Assembly (NCBI RefSeq): GCF_038871235.1
Contig: NZ_JAVZIN010000008.1
Coordinates: forward strand, 1 to 64,000
DNA: 64,000 bases
Reading direction: 5' to 3'
From: Candidatus Hadarchaeum sp.
GTDB lineage: Archaea; Hadarchaeota; Hadarchaeia; Hadarchaeales; Hadarchaeaceae
Position numbers and translations under genes: made by a program. A model generated the notes under the pieces. It saw nothing but the letters and a program-made list of their open reading frames with translations, did no database searches and was not told where the DNA came from. Of the stretch, positions 1 to 63,087 are shown piece by piece (the first letter of the stretch is position 1; each line of letters opens with the position of its first letter).

Positions 1-719
1 TGGCCCGGCTTCCCTACCTTCCCTTCGGGATGCCGGTGGGCGCTATATTGGTCGCGCTGGGTCTGATCAGCATGGTCGTCGGGGTCCTCATGGCCCTCAT
101 GCAGCGGGACTTTAAGCGCATGCTCGCCTACCACGTCATCAGCCAGAAGGGCTACATGGTCCTAGGCATCGGCCTTGGCACTCTGGGGGCAACTCTAGGC
201 ACTCAAGGAGGTCTCTTCCACCTTCTAAACCATTCAACTTACAAAGCCCTACTGTTCATGTGCGCCGGAGCCGTCCTTTACCAGACTAAGAGCCAAAAGT
301 TCGATGAGCTGGGTGGGTTGGGCAAAAACATGCCCATTACCGCTCTGACCTTCCTCATCGGCGCCCTTGCCATCTCCGGGATACCTCCTCTGAACGGCTT
401 CGTCAGCAAATATATTATTTATCTAGCCGGCCTCCAAGCGGGTATGCCTTGGGTAACCGCCATCGCTGTGCTGGTCAGCGGTCTGACGCTGGCCAGCTTC
501 ATGAAGGCCTTCAGCTCAGTATTCCTGGGTCAGAGGCCGCGGCATCTGCAGGGTACTATGGAGGCTCCCAAGCCCATGCTCTTCGCCATGATTGCAATGG
601 CTGTGATCTGCGTGGCCATAGGTCTGGTTCCAGACCTAGGATTCAATATCGTGGGTCCGGCGGCGGAAGCGGCTAAAAACGTGGTTAGCTATGTAAGTCA
701 AGTGCTGGGGGGAACCTGA
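1..719 (+). CDS. Mrp/NuoL-M-N-type antiporter subunit of membrane-bound hydrogenase (MbhH-like), 5'-truncated
   Basis: Hydrophobic; DFKRMLAYH..SQ.GY, NH..YKALLF, AISGIPPLNGFVSK motifs; frame is open to the window start. Confidence 0.88.
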   Translation, partial: ARLPYLPFGMPVGAILVALGLISMVVGVLMALMQRDFKRMLAYHVISQKGYMVLGIGLGTLGATLGTQGGLFHLLNHSTYKALLFMCAGAVLYQTKSQKFDELGGLGKNMPITALTFLIGALAISGIPPLNGFVSKYIIYLAGLQAGMPWVTAIAVLVSGLTLASFMKAFSSVFLGQRPRHLQGTMEAPKPMLFAMIAMAVICVAIGLVPDLGFNIVGPAAEAAKNVVSYVSQVLGGT

Positions 720-1048
720 TGTTTGACCTGATCTGGCAACCGATAATCGTCACGGCCGCAATCTTGCTCTGCTCGCTGGCCACCTATGGGTTAATTGCGA
801 TTGGGAGAAAAACCACCAAACCCCAGCCGACCCCGGAGAAGATGAAGAACTATGCCTGCGGAGAGGAACTGGAGCCTGAGGAGATCCACGCTGACAGTGC
901 TCAATTTTTCTCCGCGGTGCGCCGGGTTCTGCGGCCGTTTTATCGCTACGTTCAAGCCGCCCACACGGGTGAAGTCAACACCTATCTTCTCTGGATACTT
1001 GTTGGCTTTGTAGTCATCCTAATAGTAATCCTGCTCACAGTGTGGTGA
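719..1048 (+). CDS. Small membrane subunit of hydrogenase complex (MbhI-like)
   Basis: N- and C-terminal TM segments, YACGE and HTGEVNTYL motifs; position between antiporter and small subunit. Confidence 0.7.
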   Translation: MFDLIWQPIIVTAAILLCSLATYGLIAIGRKTTKPQPTPEKMKNYACGEELEPEEIHADSAQFFSAVRRVLRPFYRYVQAAHTGEVNTYLLWILVGFVVILIVILLTVW

Positions 1049-1052
1049 AATT

Positions 1053-1472
1053 ATGGGACTGACAACCTACTTCAGGAAAAAATCACCCTGGCTGTTACAC
1101 TTCAACTCAGGAGGGTGCAACGGCTGCGACATCGAGCTGCTGGCGGCTCTCACCCCGAGGTATGACGTTGAGCGCTTCGGGGTCAAGCTAAAGGGCTCGC
1201 CAAGGCACGCCGATATCATGGTGGTCACCGGCCCAGTCACCAAACAGACGAGGGAAAGGCTAATCAGAGTCTATGAACAGATGCCTGAGCCTAAAGCAGT
1301 AGTAGCGCTTGGTTCTTGCCCGGCATCAGGATGCGCCTTCCACGATTGCTACAACACCTTAGCTCCGCTAGATAAACACATCCCGGTGGCCGCATATGTG
1401 CCTGGCTGTCCGCCGAGGCCTGAGGCAATCATTTTTGCTCTAGTAAAAGTGCTGGAGGGCATGGGAAAATGA
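1053..1472 (+). CDS. Group 4 [NiFe]-hydrogenase small subunit (MbhJ/NuoB-like)
   Basis: GGCNGCDIE, SPRHAD, GSC and PGCPPRPEAI motifs. Confidence 0.93.
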   Translation: MGLTTYFRKKSPWLLHFNSGGCNGCDIELLAALTPRYDVERFGVKLKGSPRHADIMVVTGPVTKQTRERLIRVYEQMPEPKAVVALGSCPASGCAFHDCYNTLAPLDKHIPVAAYVPGCPPRPEAIIFALVKVLEGMGK

Positions 1473-1900
1473 ACGCGCAAGAAGTGGCTGATCTCATCAA
1501 GCCGGAAGTGGACGAGATTAAGATCATCAGCGAGAGGTGTCTCTTCGCCTCAAGCGACAAGAAAAGGTTCCTGAACATCCTGAAGTCACTGAAGGACAAC
1601 GGCGTCACCCATATCTCCACCATCACCGCCCTTGACAACGGCAAATCAATCGAGCTGATCTACCACTTCGACTGCAAGCCAGCTCTGCTGAACCTCAAGA
1701 TCTTCTTGCCGATGGATGACCTGAAGATACCAACCATAACCGACCTTTTCCCCGGCGCCGTGCTTTACGAGCGCGACATCATGGAGATGATTGGTGTAAT
1801 TGTGGAAGGACATCCTGATCCCAGGAGGCTGTTCCTGCCCGAGGACTGGCCCCAGGGCAAATATCCGCTGAGAAAACAGAAGGAGGAGAAAAAAACATGA
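1469..1900 (+). CDS. Hydrogenase subunit MbhK/NuoC-like
   Basis: YERDIMEMIG..GHPDPRRLFLPEDWP..YPLRK. Confidence 0.9.
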   Translation: MNAQEVADLIKPEVDEIKIISERCLFASSDKKRFLNILKSLKDNGVTHISTITALDNGKSIELIYHFDCKPALLNLKIFLPMDDLKIPTITDLFPGAVLYERDIMEMIGVIVEGHPDPRRLFLPEDWPQGKYPLRKQKEEKKT

Positions 1901-3048
1901 CGATGGTAGTGCCCATAGGACCGCAGCACCCGGCACTAAAGGAACCCGAGTACTTCAGATTTGAGGTCAAGGGCGAGGAGATAGTTGATGTGGACATCTA
2001 CTTCGGCTATGCCCACCGCGGCATCGAGGAGACCTTCGCCCGGCGCAACTATAAGCACAACATCTACCTCTCAGAGAGGATCTGCGGCATCTGTAACATC
2101 TGCCACTCGACCTGTTACTCCATGGCGGTTGAAAGGGTCGCTGGGATTGAACCTCCTGAGCGGGCCAAATACGTCCGCTCGCTGATCCTAGAGCTGGAGA
2201 GAATTCACAGCCACCTGCTCTGGCTTGCTGTGGCGGCACACCAGATCGGCTTTGACACCCTTTTCATGCTGGCCATGAGGGACCGGGAACACGTGATGGA
2301 CATGCGGGAGATAATCTCGGGAGGCAGGGTCCACTCAGCAACCAATGCCATAGGTGGGGTGAGAAGGGACGTGACCCGGGAGCAGATACCCAAGCTGCTG
2401 GAAAAGCTGGATAAGGTGGAGAAGTCAGTAAAATACTACATCAATCTTTTCCAGACCGACCGAACGATAAGGTCCCGCTGTGAAAACGTTGGGGTTCTCA
2501 CGAAGGAGGATGCCATCAAGCTCTGCGCCGTTGGTCCGGTAGCGCGCGCCTCAGGGGTGAAAACCGACATCAGGGTGGAAGACCCCTACGCCGCCTACCC
2601 GAACCTCTCCTTTGAGGTCATCACTGAAACCGACGGGGATGTCATGGCCAAGGGAATGGTCAGGTTAAGAGAGATGGTAGAATCCGTTAAAATGGTGCGG
2701 CAGATCTTGAAGGAGATGCCGAACGGTCCACTCAGGGTGCCTGTGGATCTGAAAATATCGCCCAACGAGGCCGTGCAGAGGGTGGAGGCGCCGCGCGGTG
2801 AACTCCTTTACTACATCAGGTCAAACGGCACTGAAATTCCTGAGCGGGTGCGCGTCAGAACCCCCACCTACGCCTCAGCACCGTCCCTGAAACCGATGTT
2901 CGTGGGGGGAACGGTGGCAGAAATCCCAATCGTTCTCTGGAGCCTCGATGTCTGCTTCGCCTGCAACGATCGGGTGACTCTGGTTGATGTGAACACAGGC
3001 AAGGCCAAGATTGTCACCATGGAGGAACTGAAGAGGTGGCGCAAGTGA
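1897..3048 (+). CDS. Group 4 [NiFe]-hydrogenase large subunit (MbhL-like)
   Basis: GPQHP, ERICGIC (L1), EAPRGEL, DVCFACNDR (L2) followed by a cleavable C-terminal extension. Confidence 0.93.
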   Translation: MTMVVPIGPQHPALKEPEYFRFEVKGEEIVDVDIYFGYAHRGIEETFARRNYKHNIYLSERICGICNICHSTCYSMAVERVAGIEPPERAKYVRSLILELERIHSHLLWLAVAAHQIGFDTLFMLAMRDREHVMDMREIISGGRVHSATNAIGGVRRDVTREQIPKLLEKLDKVEKSVKYYINLFQTDRTIRSRCENVGVLTKEDAIKLCAVGPVARASGVKTDIRVEDPYAAYPNLSFEVITETDGDVMAKGMVRLREMVESVKMVRQILKEMPNGPLRVPVDLKISPNEAVQRVEAPRGELLYYIRSNGTEIPERVRVRTPTYASAPSLKPMFVGGTVAEIPIVLWSLDVCFACNDRVTLVDVNTGKAKIVTMEELKRWRK

Positions 3049-4004
3049 ACTTTATCGATATCCTCCAGTTCATTTACAACTCGCTTGTCTTTCCCGGGCT
3101 ACTCTTCGCTTCCATAATCGGTCTGCTGTACGTTGGGATCGACCGAAAGGTGACTGGACACCTGCAACACCGCATAGGCCCACCGATATGGCAGGAATTC
3201 CTCGACTTTGGAAAGCTGATGACTAAAGAAGACATCACACCTGCTGCTGCGATCAGACCCGTCTTCGCGGCCGCACCTTTGTTCGCCTTGGGCTCGTTGG
3301 CGGCGGTAATGCTACTCTTGCCTGTGGTCTCGGCCCAGCCTGCGCTTTTGCTAACTGCGGATCTCATCGTTATCATTTACCTGCTTAATCTTCCGGCCAT
3401 CTCAATGATACTGGGTGGATATTCCTCCGGAAGCCCGTTCGCCATCGCTGGAGCAGGACGCTACATCGTACAACTCTTGGGCTACGAGTTCGTCTTCATA
3501 CTGTCGATTGCAACCATAGCCGTGAAAGTTGGAACTCTCAATCTGACGGATATCATCAACTATCAAAGGACGAGCGGGTGGCTGTTGCTAGACTGGAAAC
3601 TTCTGCCGGCGATTATAGCCATGCTCATCGCGGCCCAAGGAAAACTGCTCCGCACACCATTCGATATACCGGAGGCCGAGAGCGAGATCGTCGCCGGTCC
3701 ACTCACTGAGTACTCTGGCCCCAAACTGGCCATCTGGAGAACCGCATACAACGTGGAAACCATCGCAGTGGCTGCCCTTTTGGTCTCCCTCTTCTTGGGT
3801 GGTCCAACTCCATATATTTTTGGAAGCATACAGATACCAGCCATCGTGGACTTCCTCATCAAGACATTCTTGATAGTGATGCTGACCACGATAGTGAGAA
3901 ACATCGTGGCTAGAGTGAGGATCGACCAAGCACTGAAGTTCTACTGGACCTTTGGCACACTTCTCGCCGCAATCAGTCTAATACTCGTGATGGTGGTGCC
4001 CTAA
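3036..4004 (+). CDS. Hydrogenase membrane subunit MbhM/NuoH-like
   Basis: DRK...QHRIGPP and PFDIPEAESEIVAGPLTEYSG motifs. Confidence 0.92.
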   Translation: MAQVNFIDILQFIYNSLVFPGLLFASIIGLLYVGIDRKVTGHLQHRIGPPIWQEFLDFGKLMTKEDITPAAAIRPVFAAAPLFALGSLAAVMLLLPVVSAQPALLLTADLIVIIYLLNLPAISMILGGYSSGSPFAIAGAGRYIVQLLGYEFVFILSIATIAVKVGTLNLTDIINYQRTSGWLLLDWKLLPAIIAMLIAAQGKLLRTPFDIPEAESEIVAGPLTEYSGPKLAIWRTAYNVETIAVAALLVSLFLGGPTPYIFGSIQIPAIVDFLIKTFLIVMLTTIVRNIVARVRIDQALKFYWTFGTLLAAISLILVMVVP

Positions 4005-4315
4005 TGGTGAAAATACTGCCCAAGGTTCTGGCCAACCTTTTCCGCAAGCCCTTCACGGTGAAGTACCCGTATGAAAAGGTAGAGCCCGCTGATGGTTACC
4101 GTGGAAAGCCATCAATAACCAGAGAGAAATGCATCCGCTGCTGGCAGTGTATCAGAGCCTGTCCAGATAGGGCAATTAGCATCGACAAGGAAACTAAAAC
4201 CCCAGTCATCTGGCTGGGCAGATGCACCTACTGTGGAGAGTGTGCCGAGGCCTGCCCAACGAAAACGATCGTGATGACAAAGAACTTCGAGTTCTTGGAC
4301 CAGTACGAGAAATAA
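4004..4315 (+). CDS. 2x[4Fe-4S] subunit MbhN/NuoI-like
   Basis: TVKYP; CIRCWQCIRACP and CTYCGECAEACP. Confidence 0.92.
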   Translation: MVKILPKVLANLFRKPFTVKYPYEKVEPADGYRGKPSITREKCIRCWQCIRACPDRAISIDKETKTPVIWLGRCTYCGECAEACPTKTIVMTKNFEFLDQYEK

Positions 4316-4323
4316 GGCGCTAA

Positions 4324-4818
4324 TTAGAACTGTTTAAATAGCTCAGTCAGAATTTTCAGAACCATATTCATAGAGTTTTTCACCGCTTCGCACATTTTTG
4401 AACCTAGACCGACCTGTCCTGGCTGAATCCCCAACAAGACTACCTCCGCCCCCGTCTGCTCCTTAAGGTAGCCCGTCAGCACGGAAAGAGGTATGGTGTG
4501 TGTGGAAACTGGGCGACCGGCGATGGCCTCGGGATCAGCAACAATCATATCTCCAGCCCTAGCGCCGAAATCAGCCGCATCAATAAGTATGATATGGGAT
4601 GGTCTGAAACGCCGGATCTGAGAGGTATAGTTCTCAGGAGCCACACCACCCTCTAAAAGCAAAACTTTTGGTGACTTTATACGGTTACGCAACTTCCTGA
4701 CTATCTCAACGCCGACAGCATCATCTCCCCGCAAATCGCTGCCGACGCCGACGATCGCTACCCGCGTGGCCCGATTTAAAAATGAGGACAAATCCACGAC
4801 CAAAATTTCACCTGACAA
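4324..4818 (-). CDS. hycI: Hydrogenase maturation endopeptidase (HycI-type)
   Basis: GVGSDLRGDDAVG, APEN, IDAADFG, STHTIPL. Confidence 0.9.
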   Translation of the reverse strand: MSGEILVVDLSSFLNRATRVAIVGVGSDLRGDDAVGVEIVRKLRNRIKSPKVLLLEGGVAPENYTSQIRRFRPSHIILIDAADFGARAGDMIVADPEAIAGRPVSTHTIPLSVLTGYLKEQTGAEVVLLGIQPGQVGLGSKMCEAVKNSMNMVLKILTELFKQF

Positions 4819-5500
4819 AATTATCGTAAATTAAATCCTCTCGCTTTGCCCCAACCCGCTTCAGTGCTGAAAGTGCCCAATCAATCTTCCCAACCTCTGA
4901 AATCCGGTGGGCATCTGAACCAATGCTGAGCTTTACCCCCTTTTTAAGACAAAGCCTGATGAAAGCATCGTCAGGCACTTTATATTTCACGTTAACCTCC
5001 ATCGCCACATTTTTCTCCGCCGCTAGGTCGACGAAGCCCTCAATTTCCTCCCACGAGAGGCTCGGCAGCAGATCTACGTTGAAGAAAAACGGGTGACAGA
5101 AGACATCAACCCTTTGTCTTTCTATCGCACGAGTTGCACGGAAGAGGTATTCATGGGCATTATCACTCAAGTGAATCTTCCCAATATCGTGAATCCCTAT
5201 CAAGAGAATGTCGATTTTTTTGACAAAATCATCCTCCACATCTAAACTGCCATACCTGCTGACCACGTTGGCTTCAATCCCGGCCAAAACAGGTGTTTCG
5301 ACATCCTCAGCGACGATTTTTATATCCTCGAGCATCTGCGTCATTTTCTCCCGACCCACACCAACGCTGAGCTCAGGACCATGATCGGTGAAAGCTAAGG
5401 CCTCCAAACCCCTGGTTGTTGCCGCCTCGACCACCTCGGCATGGCTGCAGGTGCCATCCGAATATCGAGTATGTATGTGAAAATCGAACTTTTTTAGCAT
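4808..5500 (-). CDS. PHP-family phosphoesterase
   Basis: DFHIHTRYSDG, FTDH, GIE, CHP, GSDAH. Confidence 0.88.
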   Translation of the reverse strand: MLKKFDFHIHTRYSDGTCSHAEVVEAATTRGLEALAFTDHGPELSVGVGREKMTQMLEDIKIVAEDVETPVLAGIEANVVSRYGSLDVEDDFVKKIDILLIGIHDIGKIHLSDNAHEYLFRATRAIERQRVDVFCHPFFFNVDLLPSLSWEEIEGFVDLAAEKNVAMEVNVKYKVPDDAFIRLCLKKGVKLSIGSDAHRISEVGKIDWALSALKRVGAKREDLIYDNFVR

Positions 5501-5591
5501 ACTAAACCAAAACCGAATTGTACCTAAAAGGCTTAATTATACCTACTGAAAGGATGTTTCAGAAAGAAATTTTAAAAACGGGTGAAGCGGG

Positions 5592-6629
5592 ATGGTGGAA
5601 AATCAAAGCGATAATATGTCGAAGAGAATAACCCTTTCGCACGGCGCTGGCGGAAAAATTATGATGGATTTCATAAAAAACATCATTTTGAAGGAAATTA
5701 ACCTCAAAAGCGCCGGAGAGGTGGGGCTTGACGCTCTTGACGACGGAGCCAGTATTTCCCTAGGTGACAAGACCCTGATATTCACTACCGACTCGCACAC
5801 GGTAAAACCACTATTTTTTCCCGGAGGGGATATCGGAAAGCTGTCTGTATCGGGAACAATAAACGACTTGGCAATGATGGGGGGGAGGCCGCTCGCCATG
5901 GCCTGTGCAATAGTGGTGGAAGAAGGATTTTCCATCGCCGATCTGGAACGAATATTTCGCTCAATGAACATCACTTCCCAAGAAGTTGGTTGTCCCCTAA
6001 TCACAGGTGATTTTAAAGTTATGGAAAAGGGATCGCTAGATGGGATGATTATAACTACCACAGGTGTAGGTCTAGCTGATAAAATCATCACCGATCGGGG
6101 GTTGAAACCGGGAGATAAAATCATTGTTACGGGAACCATCGGTGACCATGGGATGACAATAATTGCTCAGAGAGAAGGGATAAATCTAGCCACGGATTTG
6201 GTCTCCGACGTTGCACCCCTGTGGGAAACTATTGAGGCCGCTCTGAAGGTGGGTGGAGTAACCGCAATGAAAGATCCCACGCGAGGGGGCCTAAACGGAG
6301 CTTTGAATGAGATGGCGGAAAAGGCAAGAGTGGGCATAATCATCAAGGAAAATGAAATCCCAATTTTAGATTCTGTCAGGGCTGCTAGCGAAATGCTGGG
6401 TATTGATCCTCTCCAAATCACCAATGAAGGAAAGGCTGTTATATCTGTGGAACCGGCAAAGTGCGACTTAGTGCTGGAAGCAATTAAAAAAACCAAATAT
6501 GGTAAAAATGCTAAAATAATAGGTGAAGTGATAGCAGATTACCCTGGAGATGTGATTCTTGAAACCAGCGTTGGAGGTAGAAGACTATTAGAAACCCCAA
6601 TCGGGGACCCAGCTCCAAGAATATGTTAA
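5592..6629 (+). CDS. hypE: Hydrogenase maturation carbamoyl dehydratase HypE
   Basis: HGAGG, TTDSHTVKPLFFPGGDIG, DPTRGG, C-terminal PRIC. Confidence 0.96.
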   Translation: MVENQSDNMSKRITLSHGAGGKIMMDFIKNIILKEINLKSAGEVGLDALDDGASISLGDKTLIFTTDSHTVKPLFFPGGDIGKLSVSGTINDLAMMGGRPLAMACAIVVEEGFSIADLERIFRSMNITSQEVGCPLITGDFKVMEKGSLDGMIITTTGVGLADKIITDRGLKPGDKIIVTGTIGDHGMTIIAQREGINLATDLVSDVAPLWETIEAALKVGGVTAMKDPTRGGLNGALNEMAEKARVGIIIKENEIPILDSVRAASEMLGIDPLQITNEGKAVISVEPAKCDLVLEAIKKTKYGKNAKIIGEVIADYPGDVILETSVGGRRLLETPIGDPAPRIC

Positions 6630-6641
6630 TATACATTAATT

Positions 6642-6921
6642 GACAAATAATGACAAAAATAGAAAATTAAATATTCAGAAAAATATGTACATAAGTGGGC
6701 AATAGACAAATATAGACATATAAAAACGTGAGACTTCGGGCAACTGCTCACTGTCATTAAAAAATTATTAATGGGGGCTTTTTGGCCTTTCCAAATGCTT
6801 TTAAATAAATTTATAAAGGATGAACATTGGAATCATGATCCAATAAAAATCTAAAAATAGACAAAACTGGACAGATGTAATTAAATTTATATATTTAGAC
6901 ATAGATTGACAAATGTGGACA
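6642..6921 (+). repeat. AT-rich intergenic region with 10-bp-periodic direct GACA repeats (four clusters)
   Basis: GACA at 6642/6652, 6705/6715, 6860/6870 and 6898/6908/6918; exactly 10 bp apart within each cluster. Confidence 0.8.
6886..6893 (+). promoter_or_regulatory. TATA box of the HTH-ATPase operon
   Basis: TTTATATA about 30 bp upstream of ATG 6923; no SD seen, so probably a leaderless transcript. Confidence 0.6.
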
Positions 6922-6922
6922 T

Positions 6923-7516
6923 ATGGAAAAAATGTATACGCTGAAAGAGGCAAGAGAAATCCTTAGGGTGTGTACTAAAACCATCCAAAGGTGGGATAAA
7001 CAGGGAAAAATAAAGTGTATTCGCACTCCAGGAAATCGTCGACTCATACCAGAAAGCGAGATTTTAAGAATAATTGGAAAAATTACTCCTTTAAGTGAAG
7101 AAAAAGAAGAAATTAAAACTATAAAAGTCAAAATTGGGCCAAAAAAAGAAACATCACCTCTTGAACCTGAAACGCAAGCTGAAAAGGAAAAAATTGAAAA
7201 ACCCGCGAAAACCGAAAAGATCCAGCAGTCGGCACCACCAGAGCCAAAAATACCTGAACAGCCGCCCAAGCCCAAAGAAATGACACGATACGCGATACTC
7301 GACGCTCTTGAACCATCCGGGCTGGCTATCCGCTCTGCATTTGGCGACCTTTTATCCGCAGCCATTCTTCTAAAAAAATTTACTATCAAGGACCTATCTG
7401 CAAAGGCCCGTTGTCCTGAAACCGTAGCAAACATGTTTTGCCAGCGCATGAATTCGCTCGGCTATATAACTGAAAAAGATGGGGTTTTTGAAATGCAGAT
7501 TGAGGTTATTAAATGA
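6923..7516 (+). CDS. MerR-like (Xis/BldC/IS607-type) HTH protein with Pro/Glu/Lys linker and putative C-terminal winged helix
   Basis: N-term [43 protein letters not shown]; low-complexity linker; C-term [30 protein letters not shown] resembles a wHTH. Confidence 0.75.
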
Positions 7517-8382
7517 CAACTTTTGATGAAAAAATCGGGAGAGATCAACGTTTTGAAGCCTTTATTCAGCGCTGGGGGCTAAAAAAAGACCCTTTTAGTT
7601 TTGAAATACCATCAATTGACTCTTTTGCGCCAACACAGCAAGAAGACATCAGAAAAATTAAACAATTACTCTTAGAAGGTAAAGTTGGGGTGCTCACAGG
7701 CGACTTGGGAATGGGTAAAACCACTCTTTGCGAATTCATTGTTTCGGCTTTAAGAGAAGAAAGCCTGTCAATAACGGATCCCTCCAAACAAACCATACCT
7801 GTCCTCGTCCATGGTGCGGCCTACAAATCGTCGGGAGAAATTATCCGGGCGATACTGCTCGCGCTGGAAATGCCTGTGGATAAAGACGACGCTAGTCTTT
7901 TTGACGTTTTAAGAAGATGGCACCACGATCACCAAGAGCGCCTGATCATCATAATTGACGATATCCCGGAAAGCGGCGCAAATGTGCTTGAAATAGGTGA
8001 GTTTCTGCGCGTTCTTTCAGATATCCAAAACATATCCATCTTGATCAACGGAGAAAAAAATCAGATGCAGCGATTTTTGGAGAAGGTTCCATCGCTCAGG
8101 GATAGAGTCCAACTATACGTAGAGCTTAAACCAATGAACAAAGAAACTATAAAAGACCTCCTAAAACTGCGGTTAAGGGCCGCCGGATGCTTGAATTACG
8201 ACGCTTTGATAACTCCTAACGGATTTGACGCGATTTACAAGCTGAGCAATGGCAATCCACGGTTGGCGCTTAAGGTCGCCGACAAAGCGCTACACCTGGC
8301 CGCAGCTTTAGATGTTCCAATAAATGAAAGAGTGGTGAAAAAGGCAAACAAGGTTTCCTTCTGGAGGCGTCTGTTCGGATAG
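7513..8382 (+). CDS. ExeA/GspA-like AAA+ ATPase with C-terminal amphipathic tail
   Basis: WGLKKDPFS, Walker [10 protein letters not shown], Walker B IIIIDD, SLRDRV, GNPR; ends [10 protein letters not shown]; start overlaps the upstream stop. Confidence 0.8.
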
Positions 8383-8415
8383 GGCCGGTAAACTCTCGGC
8401 GGCAACTATTTATTT

Positions 8416-8438
8416 TTGTTTCCTAAAATAGGAAACAA
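8416..8438. promoter_or_regulatory. Perfect palindromic operator TTGTTTCCTA-N3-TAGGAAACAA
   Basis: 10-bp perfect inverted repeat directly after TATTTATT and before ATG 8443. Confidence 0.7.
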
Positions 8439-8442
8439 GGAG

Positions 8443-8853
8443 ATGACATCATTGGAAGCCGAAAAAACGCCAAGGGCAACAGACTGGCTTCGTGATAACC
8501 TCCTAGTAAAAGTTCTATTGGAGCGATCACATTTAGACGAAAAAACCTTGAAAGCAATGCTGCTCTACTATTGGTCTGAGAACCCAACTTTCGAAATTAT
8601 TGCCAAAAAACTCAAAATAAAAAGATCTGGGGCCTGGAAAAGGTGGAAAAAGGGCCAAGAAGCCATAATGCGCTCATTTTACACGATTGAACTGGCGATC
8701 TACTCAGGAATTCTGGAAAGGGAAACCGCAGAAATCCTGATTGATGACCTAATTGACTACAATGAACTGGCCAAAGGAGCCGCAAATGTTGAAGAAATCA
8801 GGGATAGGATTGAACGCCGGATGGTTCAACTGGTTAGGAATCTGCGTAGCTAA
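8443..8853 (+). CDS. Uncharacterised archaeal HTH DNA-binding protein
   Basis: TFEIIAKKLKIKRSGAWKRW HTH-like segment; ATG 8443 with GGAG preferred over TTG 8416. Confidence 0.65.
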   Translation: MTSLEAEKTPRATDWLRDNLLVKVLLERSHLDEKTLKAMLLYYWSENPTFEIIAKKLKIKRSGAWKRWKKGQEAIMRSFYTIELAIYSGILERETAEILIDDLIDYNELAKGAANVEEIRDRIERRMVQLVRNLRS

Positions 8854-8946
8854 AAAAATTATTCAACCAAATTCCTCGGCATCGAAAGGTATTTATTGGT
8901 TCCAAAACGAGGAAAAACTACAAACAGACTAAGGAGGCAAAAGACT

Positions 8947-9234
8947 ATGGCAGAACAAAAGACCGCCGAGAATGTGGTTTTTATTGGAGTGAAACCAGTG
9001 ATGAACTACGTTTTGGCAGTAATCACACAGTTCAACCAGGGCATCAACGAAATTACCCTCAAGGCACGAGGTAAAGCGATTAGCAGAGCTGTCGATGTCG
9101 CAGAGATCGTCAGAAACAGATTTTTGCCGAACATGGTGGTTCGAAACATTTCAATAGGAACCGAATCCATGCAAGCGGAAGGCGGCACCACAAACGTTTC
9201 AACCATAGAGATAGTGCTCGGAAAGGGGCAATAA
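8947..9234 (+). CDS. albA: DNA/RNA-binding chromatin protein Alba
   Basis: [36 protein letters not shown]; SD AAGGAGG at 8931-8937. Confidence 0.96.
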
Positions 9235-9328
9235 ACTCTTTCCGTGCCTTTTTATTTTTTTACCCAAATCTCCACAGCTAAGCGTGTTTTATTTGAATTA
9301 ATTTAAAAGGTAAGGAGACTAATCACTA

Positions 9329-9841
9329 TTGATCAGCTTGCAGACGCCGATTTGCAAAATATGCTTGAAGAGCGGCATCCTCTGCCAAGGCTGTAGCCAG
9401 AAACTTAAAGAGGGAAAGATATCAAAATTAGAACTCAACATCTCGCTGGCTCTTTTCGAACTTTCAAAGAAACATAAAGAACTGGATCAACTGATTTTCA
9501 AACGCGCGGTCGATTCCGATGGATTGATCATTCTGGTGGTTGGGGCCGGACAGATACCACTTCTCATCGGAAGGAGAGGCAGGATAGTTCAAGAACTTGA
9601 AAACATCCTGAAAAGTAAGGTTCGGATAGTTGAAGAAGGATCAACGGAGAAAAAACTTATTCAGGACCTTTTAACGCCCGCCGATGTGCTCGGAATTAAC
9701 ATCCTCTATACCAAATCCGGAGATGAATACAGGGTCAGGGTGCCACGACAACACATGCGGCGTTTGCCAAAAAACAAGGAAAAACTTGAAGCAGCTCTGA
9801 GCAAGCTAACTAATAAAAACTACACTATAATATTCGAGTAG
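9329..9841 (+). CDS. Archaeal NusA-like KH-domain protein with N-terminal Cys cluster
   Basis: PICKICLKSGILCQGC; KH motif LIGRRG. Confidence 0.78.
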   Translation: MISLQTPICKICLKSGILCQGCSQKLKEGKISKLELNISLALFELSKKHKELDQLIFKRAVDSDGLIILVVGAGQIPLLIGRRGRIVQELENILKSKVRIVEEGSTEKKLIQDLLTPADVLGINILYTKSGDEYRVRVPRQHMRRLPKNKEKLEAALSKLTNKNYTIIFE

Positions 9842-13674: not shown

Positions 13675-14717
13675 CTCACCAAAAGGCCTTTGTACTTGGC
13701 ATATGTTGAGTAATCAATGTAAATCTTATCGTTGAGAAATTGCTCTACCTTAGGTGCCAAGTCACGTTTTTCCTCTATCGCCTCCTTAACCCGAATGCTA
13801 AAGGCATCACTTCCGGCACCTGAACCGTATGAAACGACCAAAATCCTGTCGCCGGGTTTGGCTTTGTCAAGAACTGCCGCCAGACCTATCATCGTGGACC
13901 CTGAATAAGTATTGCCTATTTTAGGGACAACAAGTCCACAGGTTATCTGCGCCTTGGAAAATCCGAGTTCTTCGGCTACCTGATAGGGGAACTTTCCATT
14001 GGGTTGATGAAAAACAGCGTGGGTAAAGTCCTGTGGTGTGAGTTTCAGCTGACGAAGAATGCCGTGAGCGGCTGAAACAACATGCTTGAAATAAGCTGGC
14101 TTTCCTGTGAATCTTCCACCATGCTTAGGATAAGGTCGCATCTCCCGGCGCCAAAAATCCGGTGTGTCTGTGGTGTATGAATAGGTTCCCTCTATCTCCG
14201 CCAACGCTTCACCGTCATTCTTTCCGATGATCACCGCACCGCCTCCGGCAGCGGCCGTATATTCTAAGGCGTCTCCTGGAGCCGCTTGTGCCGTATCGGC
14301 TCCTATAGAAATCCCGTATTTTATCTGCCCCATCTCAACCAAACCGGCGCAGGCTTGGATCCCAGCCGTCCCGGCCTTGCAGGCAAACTCCATATCGGCC
14401 GCGGTGAGGTTCGGAGTGGCCTCAATGGCCTCGGCTACTATGGTCGCGGTGGGCTTTACTGCGTAGGGGTGTGACTCCGACCCGACGTAAACAGCCCCGA
14501 TATCTTGGGGATTTATCCTCGCCCTTCTCACCGCGTTCCGAGCCGACTCGACTGATATAGTCGCAGTATCCTCATCGGGTGCAGGAACAGACTTTTCTTC
14601 CACCATCAAACTCTGCTTAACCCTGAAAGGATCCTCACCCCAAACCTTGGCAATATCGTCCAGCCGGATGCGGTACCTCGGTATGTAAACACCATAGCCC
14701 ACTATGCCAACATTCAC
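13671..14717 (-). CDS. Hydroxymethylglutaryl-CoA synthase
   Basis: [36 protein letters not shown]. Confidence 0.95.
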
Positions 14718-31743: not shown

Positions 31744-32580
31744 TTGATGCTAACCGAAACCAAGCGACTCCTGTGTAGGGATGGAATATGGCTGGACAGA
31801 CGGCTGGGGCAAAATCAAGTCATCGACGCCTCCATTCTGAAAAAAATGATTGATTACGCTGAAGTGACAAAAAATGACAAGGTCTTGGAAATCGGAGCCG
31901 GAGTTGGCAATCTAACGGTTATGCTCGCCGAGGCGGCTGGAACCGTAACTGCCATTGAAAGAGATAAAAAATTAATTCGAATACTGAAAGAACGCCTGAA
32001 AGGCCGAACCAACGTCAAAGTTCTTCAAGGAGATGCTCTGGAGATGGAACTGCCCGAATTTAACAAAATAGTTTCGAATCTGCCCTTTTCAATATCCTCA
32101 AGAATAACATTCAAGCTCTTGGGGCTAAAGTTTGATATAGCGGTGTTAATGTTTCAAAAGGAATTTGCCGAGAGACTAGTTGCGTCGCCTGGATCTAAGA
32201 ATTACGGACGTCTGACAGTCAACGTTTACTACCGAGCCAAAGCGGAATTGTTGGATGAAGTTCCACCCTCGGCATTTTTCCCCCAGCCCAAAGTTAGCTC
32301 GGCAATCGTCCGCCTGAAACCCCGTCAGCCCCCGTTTGAGATCAAAGATGAACAACTCTTCTCGAGGGTTGTCCGGGCCTTATTTCAGCACCGGAATCAA
32401 CGGGTCAGAAACGCGCTCCTGCATTCTTTTTCGGAAATTTTTCCAAAAACGAAAATGACTAAAAACGAAATAAAATCGTTCATTGGTAGTACTCTACCTG
32501 GCAAATTTCTGGAAGCCAGAGTTCCAGAACTGACTCCTGAGGACTTGGGTGAGATTACCAACCTACTTACTTCTCCATGA
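31744..32580 (+). CDS. rsmA: 16S rRNA dimethyladenosine transferase
   Basis: LGQN, EIGAGVG, SNLPF, MFQKE, FFPQPKV. Confidence 0.94.
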   Translation: MMLTETKRLLCRDGIWLDRRLGQNQVIDASILKKMIDYAEVTKNDKVLEIGAGVGNLTVMLAEAAGTVTAIERDKKLIRILKERLKGRTNVKVLQGDALEMELPEFNKIVSNLPFSISSRITFKLLGLKFDIAVLMFQKEFAERLVASPGSKNYGRLTVNVYYRAKAELLDEVPPSAFFPQPKVSSAIVRLKPRQPPFEIKDEQLFSRVVRALFQHRNQRVRNALLHSFSEIFPKTKMTKNEIKSFIGSTLPGKFLEARVPELTPEDLGEITNLLTSP

Positions 32581-62262: not shown

Positions 62263-63087
62263 TCAGATATTGCGACCAGTTAACGCCCGGACCAACCTAG
62301 CGGTGGTCTCGGCAACCGCGCGTTCCTCATATGGGACGTATGGTAGGTTGGCTTCCCCCGCCACCAGCTTGGCCAAATTTCCTATTGCCACCGAAGCTTC
62401 ACAATCGGGCTCGTAAACCACGACAGGTACTCCCGCAAGCTCTGCCTCCTGAACCTTAGGATCTTCAGGTATCTCAGATAAAATGGGCAAAGCACCAAGT
62501 GCGCGGCACAAGAAACTTTCCACCTCATCTGGAGTAAGGTCGGCGGCCTTCCCCGTCCGATTAACCACTATACCGCGAGTCCAAGATCCTAAAATGTTGG
62601 CAAGCCTAACTATCTTGTAAGCATCGACCAAACTGGTGTAGGTGGGATTACAGACGGGTATCATCTCCCTTGCGGCCGCGATTGAAATAATCGTGGCGTC
62701 CTGAATTCCTGCCGCTCCGTCAATGAGGAGAAACTCGGTCTGTTTTAACAGCTCTCTTATGACTTCCTCCACCCGCTCACGCTTAACCTTAGTGAGAACC
62801 TCATGGGCATCCTCGAAACGGAAACCCATCGGCACTACTTTTATCCCATAATTTCTGTAAATCACATCCTTAACCTCAGCTTCACCCGTTAAGGCGTCCA
62901 AAAACGAAAGCTCGCATTTGTGCATACCCAACACTATCGCTAAATTGGCCATGCCGAGATCTCCGTCCAAAATGGTCGTGTCCTTGCCAAGAGCTCCCAG
63001 CGCAATTCCGAGGTTGGCTGTCAGCGTCGTCTTTCCGGTCCCTCCCTTACCAGAAGTGATTGATATCGACCGCGGCCTAAACCGCAA
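62263..63087 (-). CDS. minD: MinD/ParA family ATPase
   Basis: Deviant Walker A SGKGGTGKTT, DGDLGMANL, IPEDPKV. Confidence 0.88.
   Translation of the reverse strand: MRFRPRSISITSGKGGTGKTTLTANLGIALGALGKDTTILDGDLGMANLAIVLGMHKCELSFLDALTGEAEVKDVIYRNYGIKVVPMGFRFEDAHEVLTKVKRERVEEVIRELLKQTEFLLIDGAAGIQDATIISIAAAREMIPVCNPTYTSLVDAYKIVRLANILGSWTRGIVVNRTGKAADLTPDEVESFLCRALGALPILSEIPEDPKVQEAELAGVPVVVYEPDCEASVAIGNLAKLVAGEANLPYVPYEERAVAETTARLVRALTGRNI

Follow-up and report, generated by a model that had tools for sequence, protein, structure and literature searches.

A conserved putative site, adaptor and ExeA-like ATPase module in the archaeal phylum Hadarchaeota

In the partition loci parC-ParR-ParM, tubC-TubR-TubZ and ParABS, clustered direct repeats lie over the locus's own promoter and are served by a small adaptor and a neighbouring nucleoside triphosphatase (NTPase), and in Bacillus RacA and Noc tether DNA to the pole and to the membrane, respectively; to our knowledge, neither of these two tethers uses an AAA+ partner. 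Orc1/Cdc6 and DnaA are AAA+ proteins that act with a winged helix or a helix-turn-helix (HTH) on repeats beside their own genes, and DnaA also binds membrane lipids via an amphipathic helix. Here we report on a 64,000-nucleotide stretch of DNA from the archaeon Candidatus Hadarchaeum sp. (positions 1 to 64,000 of contig NZ_JAVZIN010000008.1, assembly GCF_038871235.1; hereafter the window), in which positions 6630 to 8382 carry an AT-rich spacer with phased GACA boxes followed by two overlapping genes, one for a predicted DNA-binding adaptor and one for an ExeA-like AAA+ ATPase. The layout is that of the partition loci, i.e. repeat clusters over the operon promoter, a putative adaptor and a nucleotide-driven partner; it differs from these in that the putative motor is an AAA_22 AAA+ protein and not ParA, actin-like or tubulin-like, and in that the locus is chromosomal and belongs to one phylum. 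That the site, the adaptor and the ATPase form a real and conserved module is well supported by the comparisons given below, while anchoring or positioning of the locus is one of several readings of what it does. The genome of the window (G000) is assembled to 1,205,095 bp in 16 contigs and is 94.75% complete; G-, L-, P-, f- and g-numbers refer to the genomes, loci, proteins, families and genera compared.

Two bacterial proteins serve as points of reference. BldC of Streptomyces is a small MerR-like developmental regulator whose subunits bind 9-bp units head-to-tail, on direct repeats one helical turn apart and in variable number, and it acts as a transcription factor (PMC5859096); the same paper discusses RacA as binding as a symmetric dimer. 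ExeA/GspA is described as the type II secretion assembly ATPase of Aeromonas (PMC4098917). A literature search for this adaptor-ATPase pair returned nothing. The adaptor resembles BldC in that the latter is the best solved relative of its HTH and in that the same-strand boxes, phased by 9-10 bp, match BldC direct repeats. It differs in that BldC is a stand-alone protein of 68 residues with a regulon, whereas the adaptor has 197 residues with a linker and a winged helix, is coupled to an ATPase, and has a composite site of which five of the six genomic copies are at its own locus. RacA and Noc are alike in the proposed function, in which a protein that binds specific DNA sites is also anchored to the membrane or the pole.

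The spacer extends from the hypE stop to the gene-1 ATG (6630-6922, no strand assigned; the features that follow are on the + strand) and holds the whole repeat array together with the promoter. The earlier note, made from the letters of the window alone, had described it as an AT-rich stretch of about 290 bp with phased GACA repeats, and this proved accurate: it is 293 bp long, has a G+C content (GC) of 0.266 vs 0.482 for the window, and carries nine GACA boxes, all on the + strand, with five box pairs at exactly 10 bp, while the opposite-strand box TGTC occurs in it once, at 6752. Specifically, two distal pairs (6641-6657, with GACA at 6642 and 6652; and 6704-6720, with GACA at 6705 and 6715, which in relatives is a triplet resembling the proximal one) are followed by a proximal pair (6859-6875; GACA at 6860 and 6870), a TATA-like element, TTTATATAT (6886-6894), ~30 nt ahead of the ATG, and a proximal triplet that fills the space between this element and the start codon (6897-6922; GACA at 6898, 6908 and 6918), its last box abutting the gene-1 ATG. 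The TATA-like element is kept as TTA[TA]ATA across five genomes of the genus, and its distance from the ATG, from which we infer the transcript start, would imply a leaderless or near-leaderless mRNA.

When the 303-nt upstream stretch was simulated 2000 times with a first-order Markov model, neither nine boxes nor five phased pairs were obtained in any run. The composite [AT]GACA[AT][AT]-N3-4-[AGT]GACA occurs six times in the whole genome (both strands), five times within the spacer and once, at 31865, inside an open reading frame (ORF), and the looser GACA-N6-GACA occurs 17 times genome-wide (both strands), five of these within the spacer. WGACAWA is only mildly raised across the window (42 vs 32 expected; 3 of 100 shuffles reach 42), which argues that the box signal is local. 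Moreover, in five genomes of the same genus the boxes are invariant, and the stretch between the clusters drifts in both sequence and length.

Some further observations concern the spacer and its surroundings. A conserved element, AAAACGTGAGAGTTCG (6722-6740), is located 3' of the distal GACA cluster and at the same place in four same-genus genomes; the distal cluster looks like a copy of the proximal operator, and AAAACGTGAGAGTTCG may mark a second promoter or start site. Folding of this conserved stretch was no better than that of shuffled sequences (z -0.94) and Rfam gave no match to it; the Rfam scan of 6500-9400 returned two matches only, at chance level (E 0.7). A bacterial sigma-70 promoter scan was set aside, the host being an archaeon.

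Gene 1 (6923-7516) encodes the adaptor of 197 amino acids and overlaps gene 2 by ATGA; its start was set to the ATG at 6923, rather than to 6932 as in one database record, on account of the conserved N-terminus MEK... The protein begins with a BldC/MerR-type HTH (residues 4-51; 6932-7075) that matches Pfam HTH_17 with 44.5 bits (cut-off 27; E 1.8e-11), passes Pfam MerR (29.3 vs 28.2 bits) and MerR_1 (28.7 vs 21.6 bits), and has the BldC-DNA structures 6ama (E 8.4e-9) and 6amk (E 1.9e-8) as best solved relatives. It continues with a low-complexity, disordered linker rich in P, E and K (~residues 55-118; 7085-7276), which varies in length and composition among orthologues and is the place where an HNH domain is inserted in other genera, and ends with a winged-helix domain (~residues 119-197; 7277-7513), the predicted docking surface for the ATPase. 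This C-domain of ~80 residues, with a helix-helix-helix-wing pattern, is conserved in every adaptor aligned; that of the window adaptor has no Pfam match of its own, in the second-type orthologues it scores as HTH_24 (32.6 bits vs the Pfam cut-off of 21.9), and an Atlas model of it matches IclR/MarR winged helices with TM-scores of 0.59-0.72, to be read as a lead and not as an alignment. The N-domain is of MerR/BldC type in 16 of 25 tree genomes and 18 of 22 further genomes, and the remaining adaptors have a different N-terminal HTH with weak similarity to HTH_3/HTH_19. Judged from these alignments, the adaptor is modular, with an N-domain that is exchanged between lineages, a variable linker and a C-domain that is always present.

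The order of HTH, linker and winged-helix-like C-terminus agrees with what had been read from the letters alone; the HTH is of MerR/BldC type, and membership in the BldC, Xis, IS607 or RacA families is not supported by their score cut-offs. The adaptor scores 36.5 bits (E 3.1e-9) against NCBIfam BldC (NF033787; cut-off 77), 26.7 against the excisionase model TIGR01764 (cut-off 28.8), 30 against IS607 NF033518 (cut-off 110), and 18.6 and 14.2 bits against the RacA models NF009647 and NF009648 (cut-offs 165 and 170), i.e. below the cut-off in each case.

A repeat array precedes the adaptor gene in the lineages read, and 15 of the 25 loci scored passed the simulation test. An exact 6-mer repeat test, in which at most 5 of 500 simulations reached the observed value on either measure in 6 of 25 loci, is too crude for 4-nt cores and a GACA-specific test was used instead. 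With the ..KTIQ recognition helix, phased GACA pairs are present in 9 of 11 loci at a level reached by at most 1 of 2000 simulations, G013 and G018 being the two loci where they are not found at this level. With the HPNTIR recognition helix, GTTAA(C) repeats take the place of GACA: in G014, TGTTAA/TTGTTA words are most densely clustered, over the whole 1.03-Mb contig, immediately ahead of the adaptor gene, and another cluster is found beside the hypE end, ~1.1 kb off; this is the proximal/distal layout written with a different word. The f5 adaptor is preceded by about nine 9-bp GATAAAA repeats that run up to the ATG (0 of 500 simulations reach this). Where the N-domain is not MerR-like the units are palindromic, e.g. 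GTAGGC..GCCTAC, and by the crude 6-mer test these palindromes are significant in three loci, nearly so in a fourth and not in five others. Across the loci compared, direct repeats go with the BldC-type reader and palindromes with the different HTH; this co-variation of repeat and N-domain provides good evidence that the adaptor binds its own upstream array.

The G014 locus has a long spacer between hypE and the adaptor gene (~1.2 kb; L042 5772-6966, corresponding to G014 C1 833,771-834,965), in which ~0.8 kb of ordinary GC separates the distal and proximal GTTAA clusters. This segment holds no ORF >99 amino acids and no Rfam match was found in the 1.2-kb spacer at E<=0.01; it may be a decayed gene or an unknown RNA.

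Gene 2 (7513-8382) encodes an ATPase of 289 amino acids, so that the coupling of the two genes proposed before is borne out in a 197-residue and a 289-residue protein joined by an ATGA overlap. Its ExeA-like nature is likewise confirmed: it matches Pfam AAA_22 with 43.3 bits (cut-off 27; E 5.8e-11) and the database names of close relatives are 'ExeA family protein' and 'type II secretory pathway predicted ATPase ExeA'. An N-terminal W-G-L-x-x-D-P-F stretch is conserved in the window ATPase, which we take to be typical of ExeA-like proteins. Conservation was read from alignments of 34 and 22 sequences (A1 and A4), and the sensor and finger roles were assigned by alignment position. The Walker A motif GDLGMGKTT (G63-T71; 7699-7725) has G66, G68, K69 and T70 invariant in both alignments, and in the Walker B motif IIIDDI (7945-7962) D149 is invariant and position 150 is D or E; R198 (8104-8106), the candidate arginine finger, and R250 (8260-8262), the candidate sensor 2, are invariant, and N179, the candidate sensor 1, is nearly so. 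With this full set of AAA+ residues the protein should hydrolyse ATP as an oligomer. In a comparison of the ATPase profile with solved proteins the only relevant matches were Cdc6 (7jgr_G, E 5.3e-4) and TnsC (7rzy, E 3.6e-3).

The ATPase ends with an aromatic-basic tail of 10 residues (8350-8379), whose motif, S-hydrophobic-hydrophobic-x-x-hydrophobic-(F)-P/G-F, is conserved after a variable linker and thus sits on a flexible tether. It resembles the membrane-targeting sequence of E. coli MinD, KGFLKRLFGG (PMC5471200), with a hydrophobic moment of 0.41 vs 0.45, and in one orthologue (P0039) an 18-residue hydrophobic, transmembrane-like segment is found in the tail.

That the two proteins work as one unit is suggested by four lines of comparison, which together sustain the three-part site, adaptor and NTPase unit of the earlier note: adjacency, the co-variation of the repeats, a shared tree split and a model of the complex. 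The adaptor gene is directly upstream of the ATPase gene, on the same strand, in 53 of 53 Hadarchaeales genomes with the flank read (26 read as ORFs, 5 by abutting match coordinates, and 22 further genomes, in 18 of which the overlap is 4 nt); five genomes in which the pair is at contig ends or in fragments (G004, G009, G035, G048 and G065) were left out of this count. Co-occurrence of the pair in relatives, which had been named as a check, thus holds in all genomes of the order with the flank read, and none of the orthologues examined lies in a secretion, pilus or transposon locus. In one genome of the sister order (G041) the adaptor is absent and the ATPase carries a C-terminal winged helix, and an ATPase from a metagenome-assembled genome (P0126) is likewise fused to a winged helix; when the profile of the adaptor C-domain was set against that of the fused domain in G041/P0126, E was 0.055 and the probability ~1%; both are winged helices, but their common descent is not supported by this. 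No fusion of adaptor and ATPase was found among close relatives of 158-506 amino acids, and a search for longer fused forms returned only distant ExeA-like proteins.

The trees of the ATPase and of the adaptor C-domain (25 genomes) share one 8/17 split, with support of 100/100 and 100/99, which cuts across families f1 and f4 and across the type of N-domain. For example, G012 combines a second-type N-domain with a type-A C-domain and a type-A ATPase, and G020, of family f1, is type B in both trees. The trees indicate that C-domain and ATPase are co-inherited; as adjacent genes share their history anyway, the split is not proof of contact. Modelling of the complex, also proposed in the earlier note, gave a predicted contact with a score of 0.61 (runs 0.62, 0.61 and 0.61) vs 0.00 for the best of three controls. 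In the calibration, 58 of 80 solved complexes and 2 of 110 mismatched pairs attain a score of 0.61, counts that hold only roughly since the model was built on custom alignments. The runs agree in at least 87% of the contacts, with a predicted local distance difference test value of the partners of at least 86. The modelled interface comprises residues 123, 126, 132-142 and 159-168 of the adaptor and residues 74-98, 117-119, 140 and 142 of the ATPase, and includes residues that are invariant in the alignments (R137, F140, G141, D142, C164 and P165 in the adaptor; H140 and E142 in the ATPase) or nearly so (L80, E82 and P96 in the ATPase). In the model, the adaptor winged helix looks like a docking module rather than a second DNA reader.

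A one-protein query found the ATPase in 36 of 41 relatives, and a profile search (E<=1e-10) found it in 59 of the 66 genomes of the phylum and in 24 of the 26 of high quality, mostly in one copy; the seven genomes with no match are 75-92% complete. In an exhaustive profile search of 1.84 billion representatives, 38 proteins were found at E<=1e-30, below which the family grades into the ExeA-like superfamily (11,658 library proteins at E<=1e-10). A word-indexed search sets the Hadarchaeota clade apart, with a drop in score from 288 to 57 bits, whereas the scores of the exhaustive profile search fall off gradually. The closest relatives outside the phylum are membrane-anchored, the ATPase being preceded by a TPR region, a transmembrane helix and a zinc ribbon, and one cluster of these is named from Margulisbacteria. 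No match to the ATPase family was found in the phage collection, the 62 pattern matches in viral contigs (alignment A1) included no relative, and plasmids gave seven records only, with 23-31% identity. Taken together, in this analysis the module is found only in Hadarchaeota, where its distribution is that of a core chromosomal, vertically inherited unit and neither that of a mobile element nor that of a defence island.

Two variants of the ATPase were noted in passing. Some orthologues (L037 3186-4229, P0112 and P0120) have one or two N-terminal zinc ribbons, in parallel with the TPR-transmembrane-zinc ribbon-ATPase relatives outside the phylum. In G009 (L046; C18, ~14,150-14,495) all that is present of the ATPase is two C-terminal pieces, which are in different frames, lie at a contig end and are inverted relative to hypE; this may be a frameshifted or decaying copy.

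The ATPase scores 47.4 bits against the XrtA/PEP-CTERM ATPase model TIGR03015 (cut-off 324.5) and 20.4 bits against TniB (PF05621; cut-off 22.4); against Orc1/Cdc6 TIGR02928 (cut-off 181.3) a scan of the protein gave 17.4 bits and a scan of the genome 16.1. By these cut-offs and those applied to the adaptor, the pair includes no member of the BldC, RacA, excisionase, IS607, Orc1/Cdc6, TniB or PEP-CTERM ATPase families. With ExeA/GspA the ATPase has the AAA_22 core and a broad superfamily in common; it differs in consisting of this core and the 10-residue tail only, with no transmembrane segment or peptidoglycan-binding domain, in being archaeal and in having a partner that is predicted to bind DNA. 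Orc1/Cdc6 is similar in that Cdc6 is the best solved match of the ATPase profile and in that the winged-helix fusion of the sister order has the same domain order, and dissimilar in that two true copies are encoded elsewhere in the genome and that the skew minimum in G014 is away from the pair. TnsC, TniB and MuB are AAA+ ATPases of a neighbouring clade, which form assemblies on DNA to which a DNA-binding protein recruits them; in contrast to their loci, the pair has neither a transposase nor transposon ends, and its chromosomal position is fixed across the phylum.

We favour the reading that the module provides ATP-controlled anchoring or positioning of this chromosomal locus, and assign it a probability of about 0.4. 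According to this reading several adaptors would bind the nine GACA boxes, one helical turn apart, head-to-tail through their BldC-type HTH, a step that follows from the co-variation and the BldC precedent; as five of the nine boxes, the proximal ones, lie on both sides of the TATA-like element and reach the start codon, binding would also autoregulate the operon. The flexible linker would join the HTH to a winged helix that docks on the ATPase and not on DNA, as suggested by the complex model with its controls, the shared tree splits and the conserved interface residues. The ExeA-like AAA+ ATPase, hydrolysing ATP as an oligomer, would be concentrated by the adaptor at the only such site of the genome, and a site present at one place argues that the ATPase acts at that place. 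Finally, the aromatic-basic C-terminal peptide on its flexible tether would link the complex to the membrane or to some other hub of the cell, for which the likeness to the MinD sequence, the hydrophobic tail segment of P0039 and the membrane-anchored relatives outside the phylum speak. The locus also lies 29-51 kb from the main orc1/cdc6 gene in the two genomes with both on one contig (51 kb in G025); for G000 synteny suggests ~85 kb if two contigs join as in G014. The site, link and motor steps are supported by comparative evidence; the attachment through the tail and the anchoring output are inferred.

Several observations weigh against this reading. The hydrophobic moment of the tail is the highest of the whole protein in 3 of 46 orthologues and among the three highest in 8 of 46, and the net charge of the last 20 residues is +12 or +13 in family f2, whereas among the four proteins of genus g15 it is -2, -6, -9 and +3, a spread that misfits a simple cationic membrane anchor and would suit a protein-docking peptide equally well. 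The complex score is a measure of model confidence and may owe something to similarity with solved AAA+/winged-helix assemblies. For the proximal boxes, which overlap the promoter, autoregulation alone suffices as an explanation, and the long AT-rich spacer with its distal cluster is not universal, as G040 and G028 have boxes only near the start codon. Two high-quality g16 genomes have no ATPase match, and a loss of the ATPase in this genus is possible. ParA/MinD-like genes are present in the genome, and the proximity of the pair to the origin is loose and, resting on two related genomes, gives weak evidence. Moreover, an HNH domain is inserted in the linker of 17 of 50 different adaptors (alignments A5 and A6), and in 13 of these 17 the HH pair, the second CxxC and the distal His are all retained; a nuclease insert points to a DNA transaction rather than to tethering, since a tether needs no nuclease. 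In the terms of the earlier note, which had proposed a DNA-membrane tethering or segregation module, the three-part unit stands and the tethering or segregation part is plausible only, given the variable tail charge, the HNH inserts, the promoter overlap and the ParA/MinD genes.

We regard the HNH insert as the largest unexplained fact about the module. Pfam HNH was found in 12 of the 22 members of A6 (HNH-bearing examples are L009, L010, L011 and L042), and the window's own adaptor has no HNH domain. The HH pair is lost in four inserts, three of them in genera g10 and g17 and one, L103, in genus g9.

Of the competing explanations the one that survives best, though we hold it to be rather unlikely, is that the module is an autoregulated transcription switch and nothing more, with the adaptor controlling its own operon (and perhaps weaker sites) and the ATPase sensing or remodelling the adaptor, e.g. 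by sequestering it or stripping it from DNA, and no positioning involved. The arrangement of the proximal boxes around the TATA-like element and up to the ATG is what such a switch would have, some lineages have boxes near the promoter only, the modelled contact between adaptor and ATPase fits equally, and BldC itself is a transcription factor (PMC5859096). What tells against it is the specificity of the site: five of the six composite sites are at the adaptor's own promoter, and a regulator that targets only itself has no output, which would leave a conserved ATPase without one. In addition, simple autoregulation would need neither arrays of 4 to 9 boxes nor a further cluster at 200 bp (G000) or ~1.1 kb (G014) upstream, and it offers no explanation of the conserved tail peptide.

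A DNA-transaction machine acting at a single site appears unlikely. It would be a secondary origin with a non-Orc initiator, or a device for site-specific nicking or recombination, in which the ATPase opens or loads DNA and the HNH domain cuts it in many lineages. Cdc6 and TnsC as closest solved matches of the ATPase, an AT-rich repeat spacer next to the gene of its probable binder, the ATPase-winged-helix fusion in the sister order with the domain order of Orc1/Cdc6, and the 13 apparently intact HNH inserts are all consistent with it. However, two canonical orc1/cdc6 genes are present in the genome (contig C4; 462 and 306 bits), the AT-rich sequence that separates the clusters is not kept from one lineage to the next, and the window adaptor has no HNH domain and no recombinase or transposase gene nearby. 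The chromosomal position does not favour an origin at the pair either: in G014 the minimum of the cumulative GC skew is near 790 kb, beside the orc1/cdc6 gene at 803 kb, and not at the pair (832-834 kb). A replication initiator that replaces a missing Orc was ruled out by the two canonical orc1/cdc6 genes.

A more specific form of the segregation idea is an origin-proximal centromere-like system, in which the BldC-type adaptor coats the array and through its winged helix recruits the ExeA-like ATPase, which is attached to the membrane by its MinD-like tail, and in which some lineages have a working HNH nuclease; its motor would be of a class not known from DNA segregation, and we consider this improbable. 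That the module is the sole segregation system for want of ParA was ruled out, ParA/MinD-like genes being present. One such MinD/ParA-like ATPase gene is in the window (62263-63087, - strand), and its G014 orthologue, at 789-790 kb, is located at the GC-skew minimum, ~13 kb from orc1/cdc6.

Very unlikely, finally, is a role in envelope or secretion assembly as for ExeA/GspA, or an origin of the pair as domesticated genes of a defence system or mobile element: the database naming as ExeA, the membrane proteins among the closest outside relatives and the match of the adaptor HTH to the small mad1 HTH of PADLOC (E 6.1e-10) speak for it, but the protein has no transmembrane segment or peptidoglycan-binding domain and its predicted partner binds DNA, no ExeB/GspB, secretin or secretion genes are among the neighbours in G000 or in the relatives read (the whole genome was not searched for secretion genes), no PADLOC system component was identified beyond the generic HTH and P-loop matches of E 2e-4 or weaker, neither the phage collection nor the viral contigs hold relatives, and the pair is near-universal, mostly single-copy and syntenic in the phylum, unlike defence islands. 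A defence system was ruled out on the near-universal single-copy spread and the generic PADLOC matches. The remainder of the probability is reserved for a reading that has not been considered here.

The pair has a stable neighbourhood. Within ~5 kb the genes are those for hydrogenase subunits, HycI, a PHP protein, HypE, a small HTH protein (G3), Alba, a KH protein, AspRS and a GCD14 methyltransferase, and none for secretion, a transposase or a recombinase was found over this distance, as the earlier note had stated. The gene order hypE - pair - G3 - alba - KH gene - aspS is retained across families. Upstream, positions 1-6629 of the window encode a membrane-bound hydrogenase module (Complex1_49kDa/NiFeSe, NADHdh, 4Fe-4S), the HycI protease, the PHP phosphoesterase and HypE, and the adjacency of this block to the pair is conserved in families f1 and f4. 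Downstream, G3 is a conserved small gene adjoining the pair (8416-8853 in the window, with a probable ATG at 8443). The perfect palindrome GTTTCC-N7-GGAAAC (8421-8441) lies immediately 5' of this ATG and is present ahead of G3 in 9 of 9 loci inspected, which represent three families; G3 and the pair are divergently transcribed in f2 and f4. The Atlas cluster of G3 has Sigma70_r4 in 14% of the members, with TFX/LuxR-like leads, and G3 is probably a separate autoregulated transcription factor.

Chromosome organisation and positioning are largely unknown in archaea beyond a few model groups, and here a compact, near-universal, single-copy unit of three parts is found in a whole uncultured phylum, which we file under partition-like or initiator-like logic built on an ExeA-like AAA+ protein. 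As the cis site is readable, the specificity domain is swapped between lineages and the interface is predicted, each step can be tested with purified proteins. If the module is a switch only, it would be a natural archaeal example of a BldC-type reader of direct repeats, the recognition helix of which co-evolves with its site. If, as in the anchoring and positioning reading, the ATPase tethers or moves DNA, ExeA-like AAA+ proteins would join the chromosome-handling machines, and the module would provide a first functional handle on the very large and poorly understood ExeA-like superfamily.

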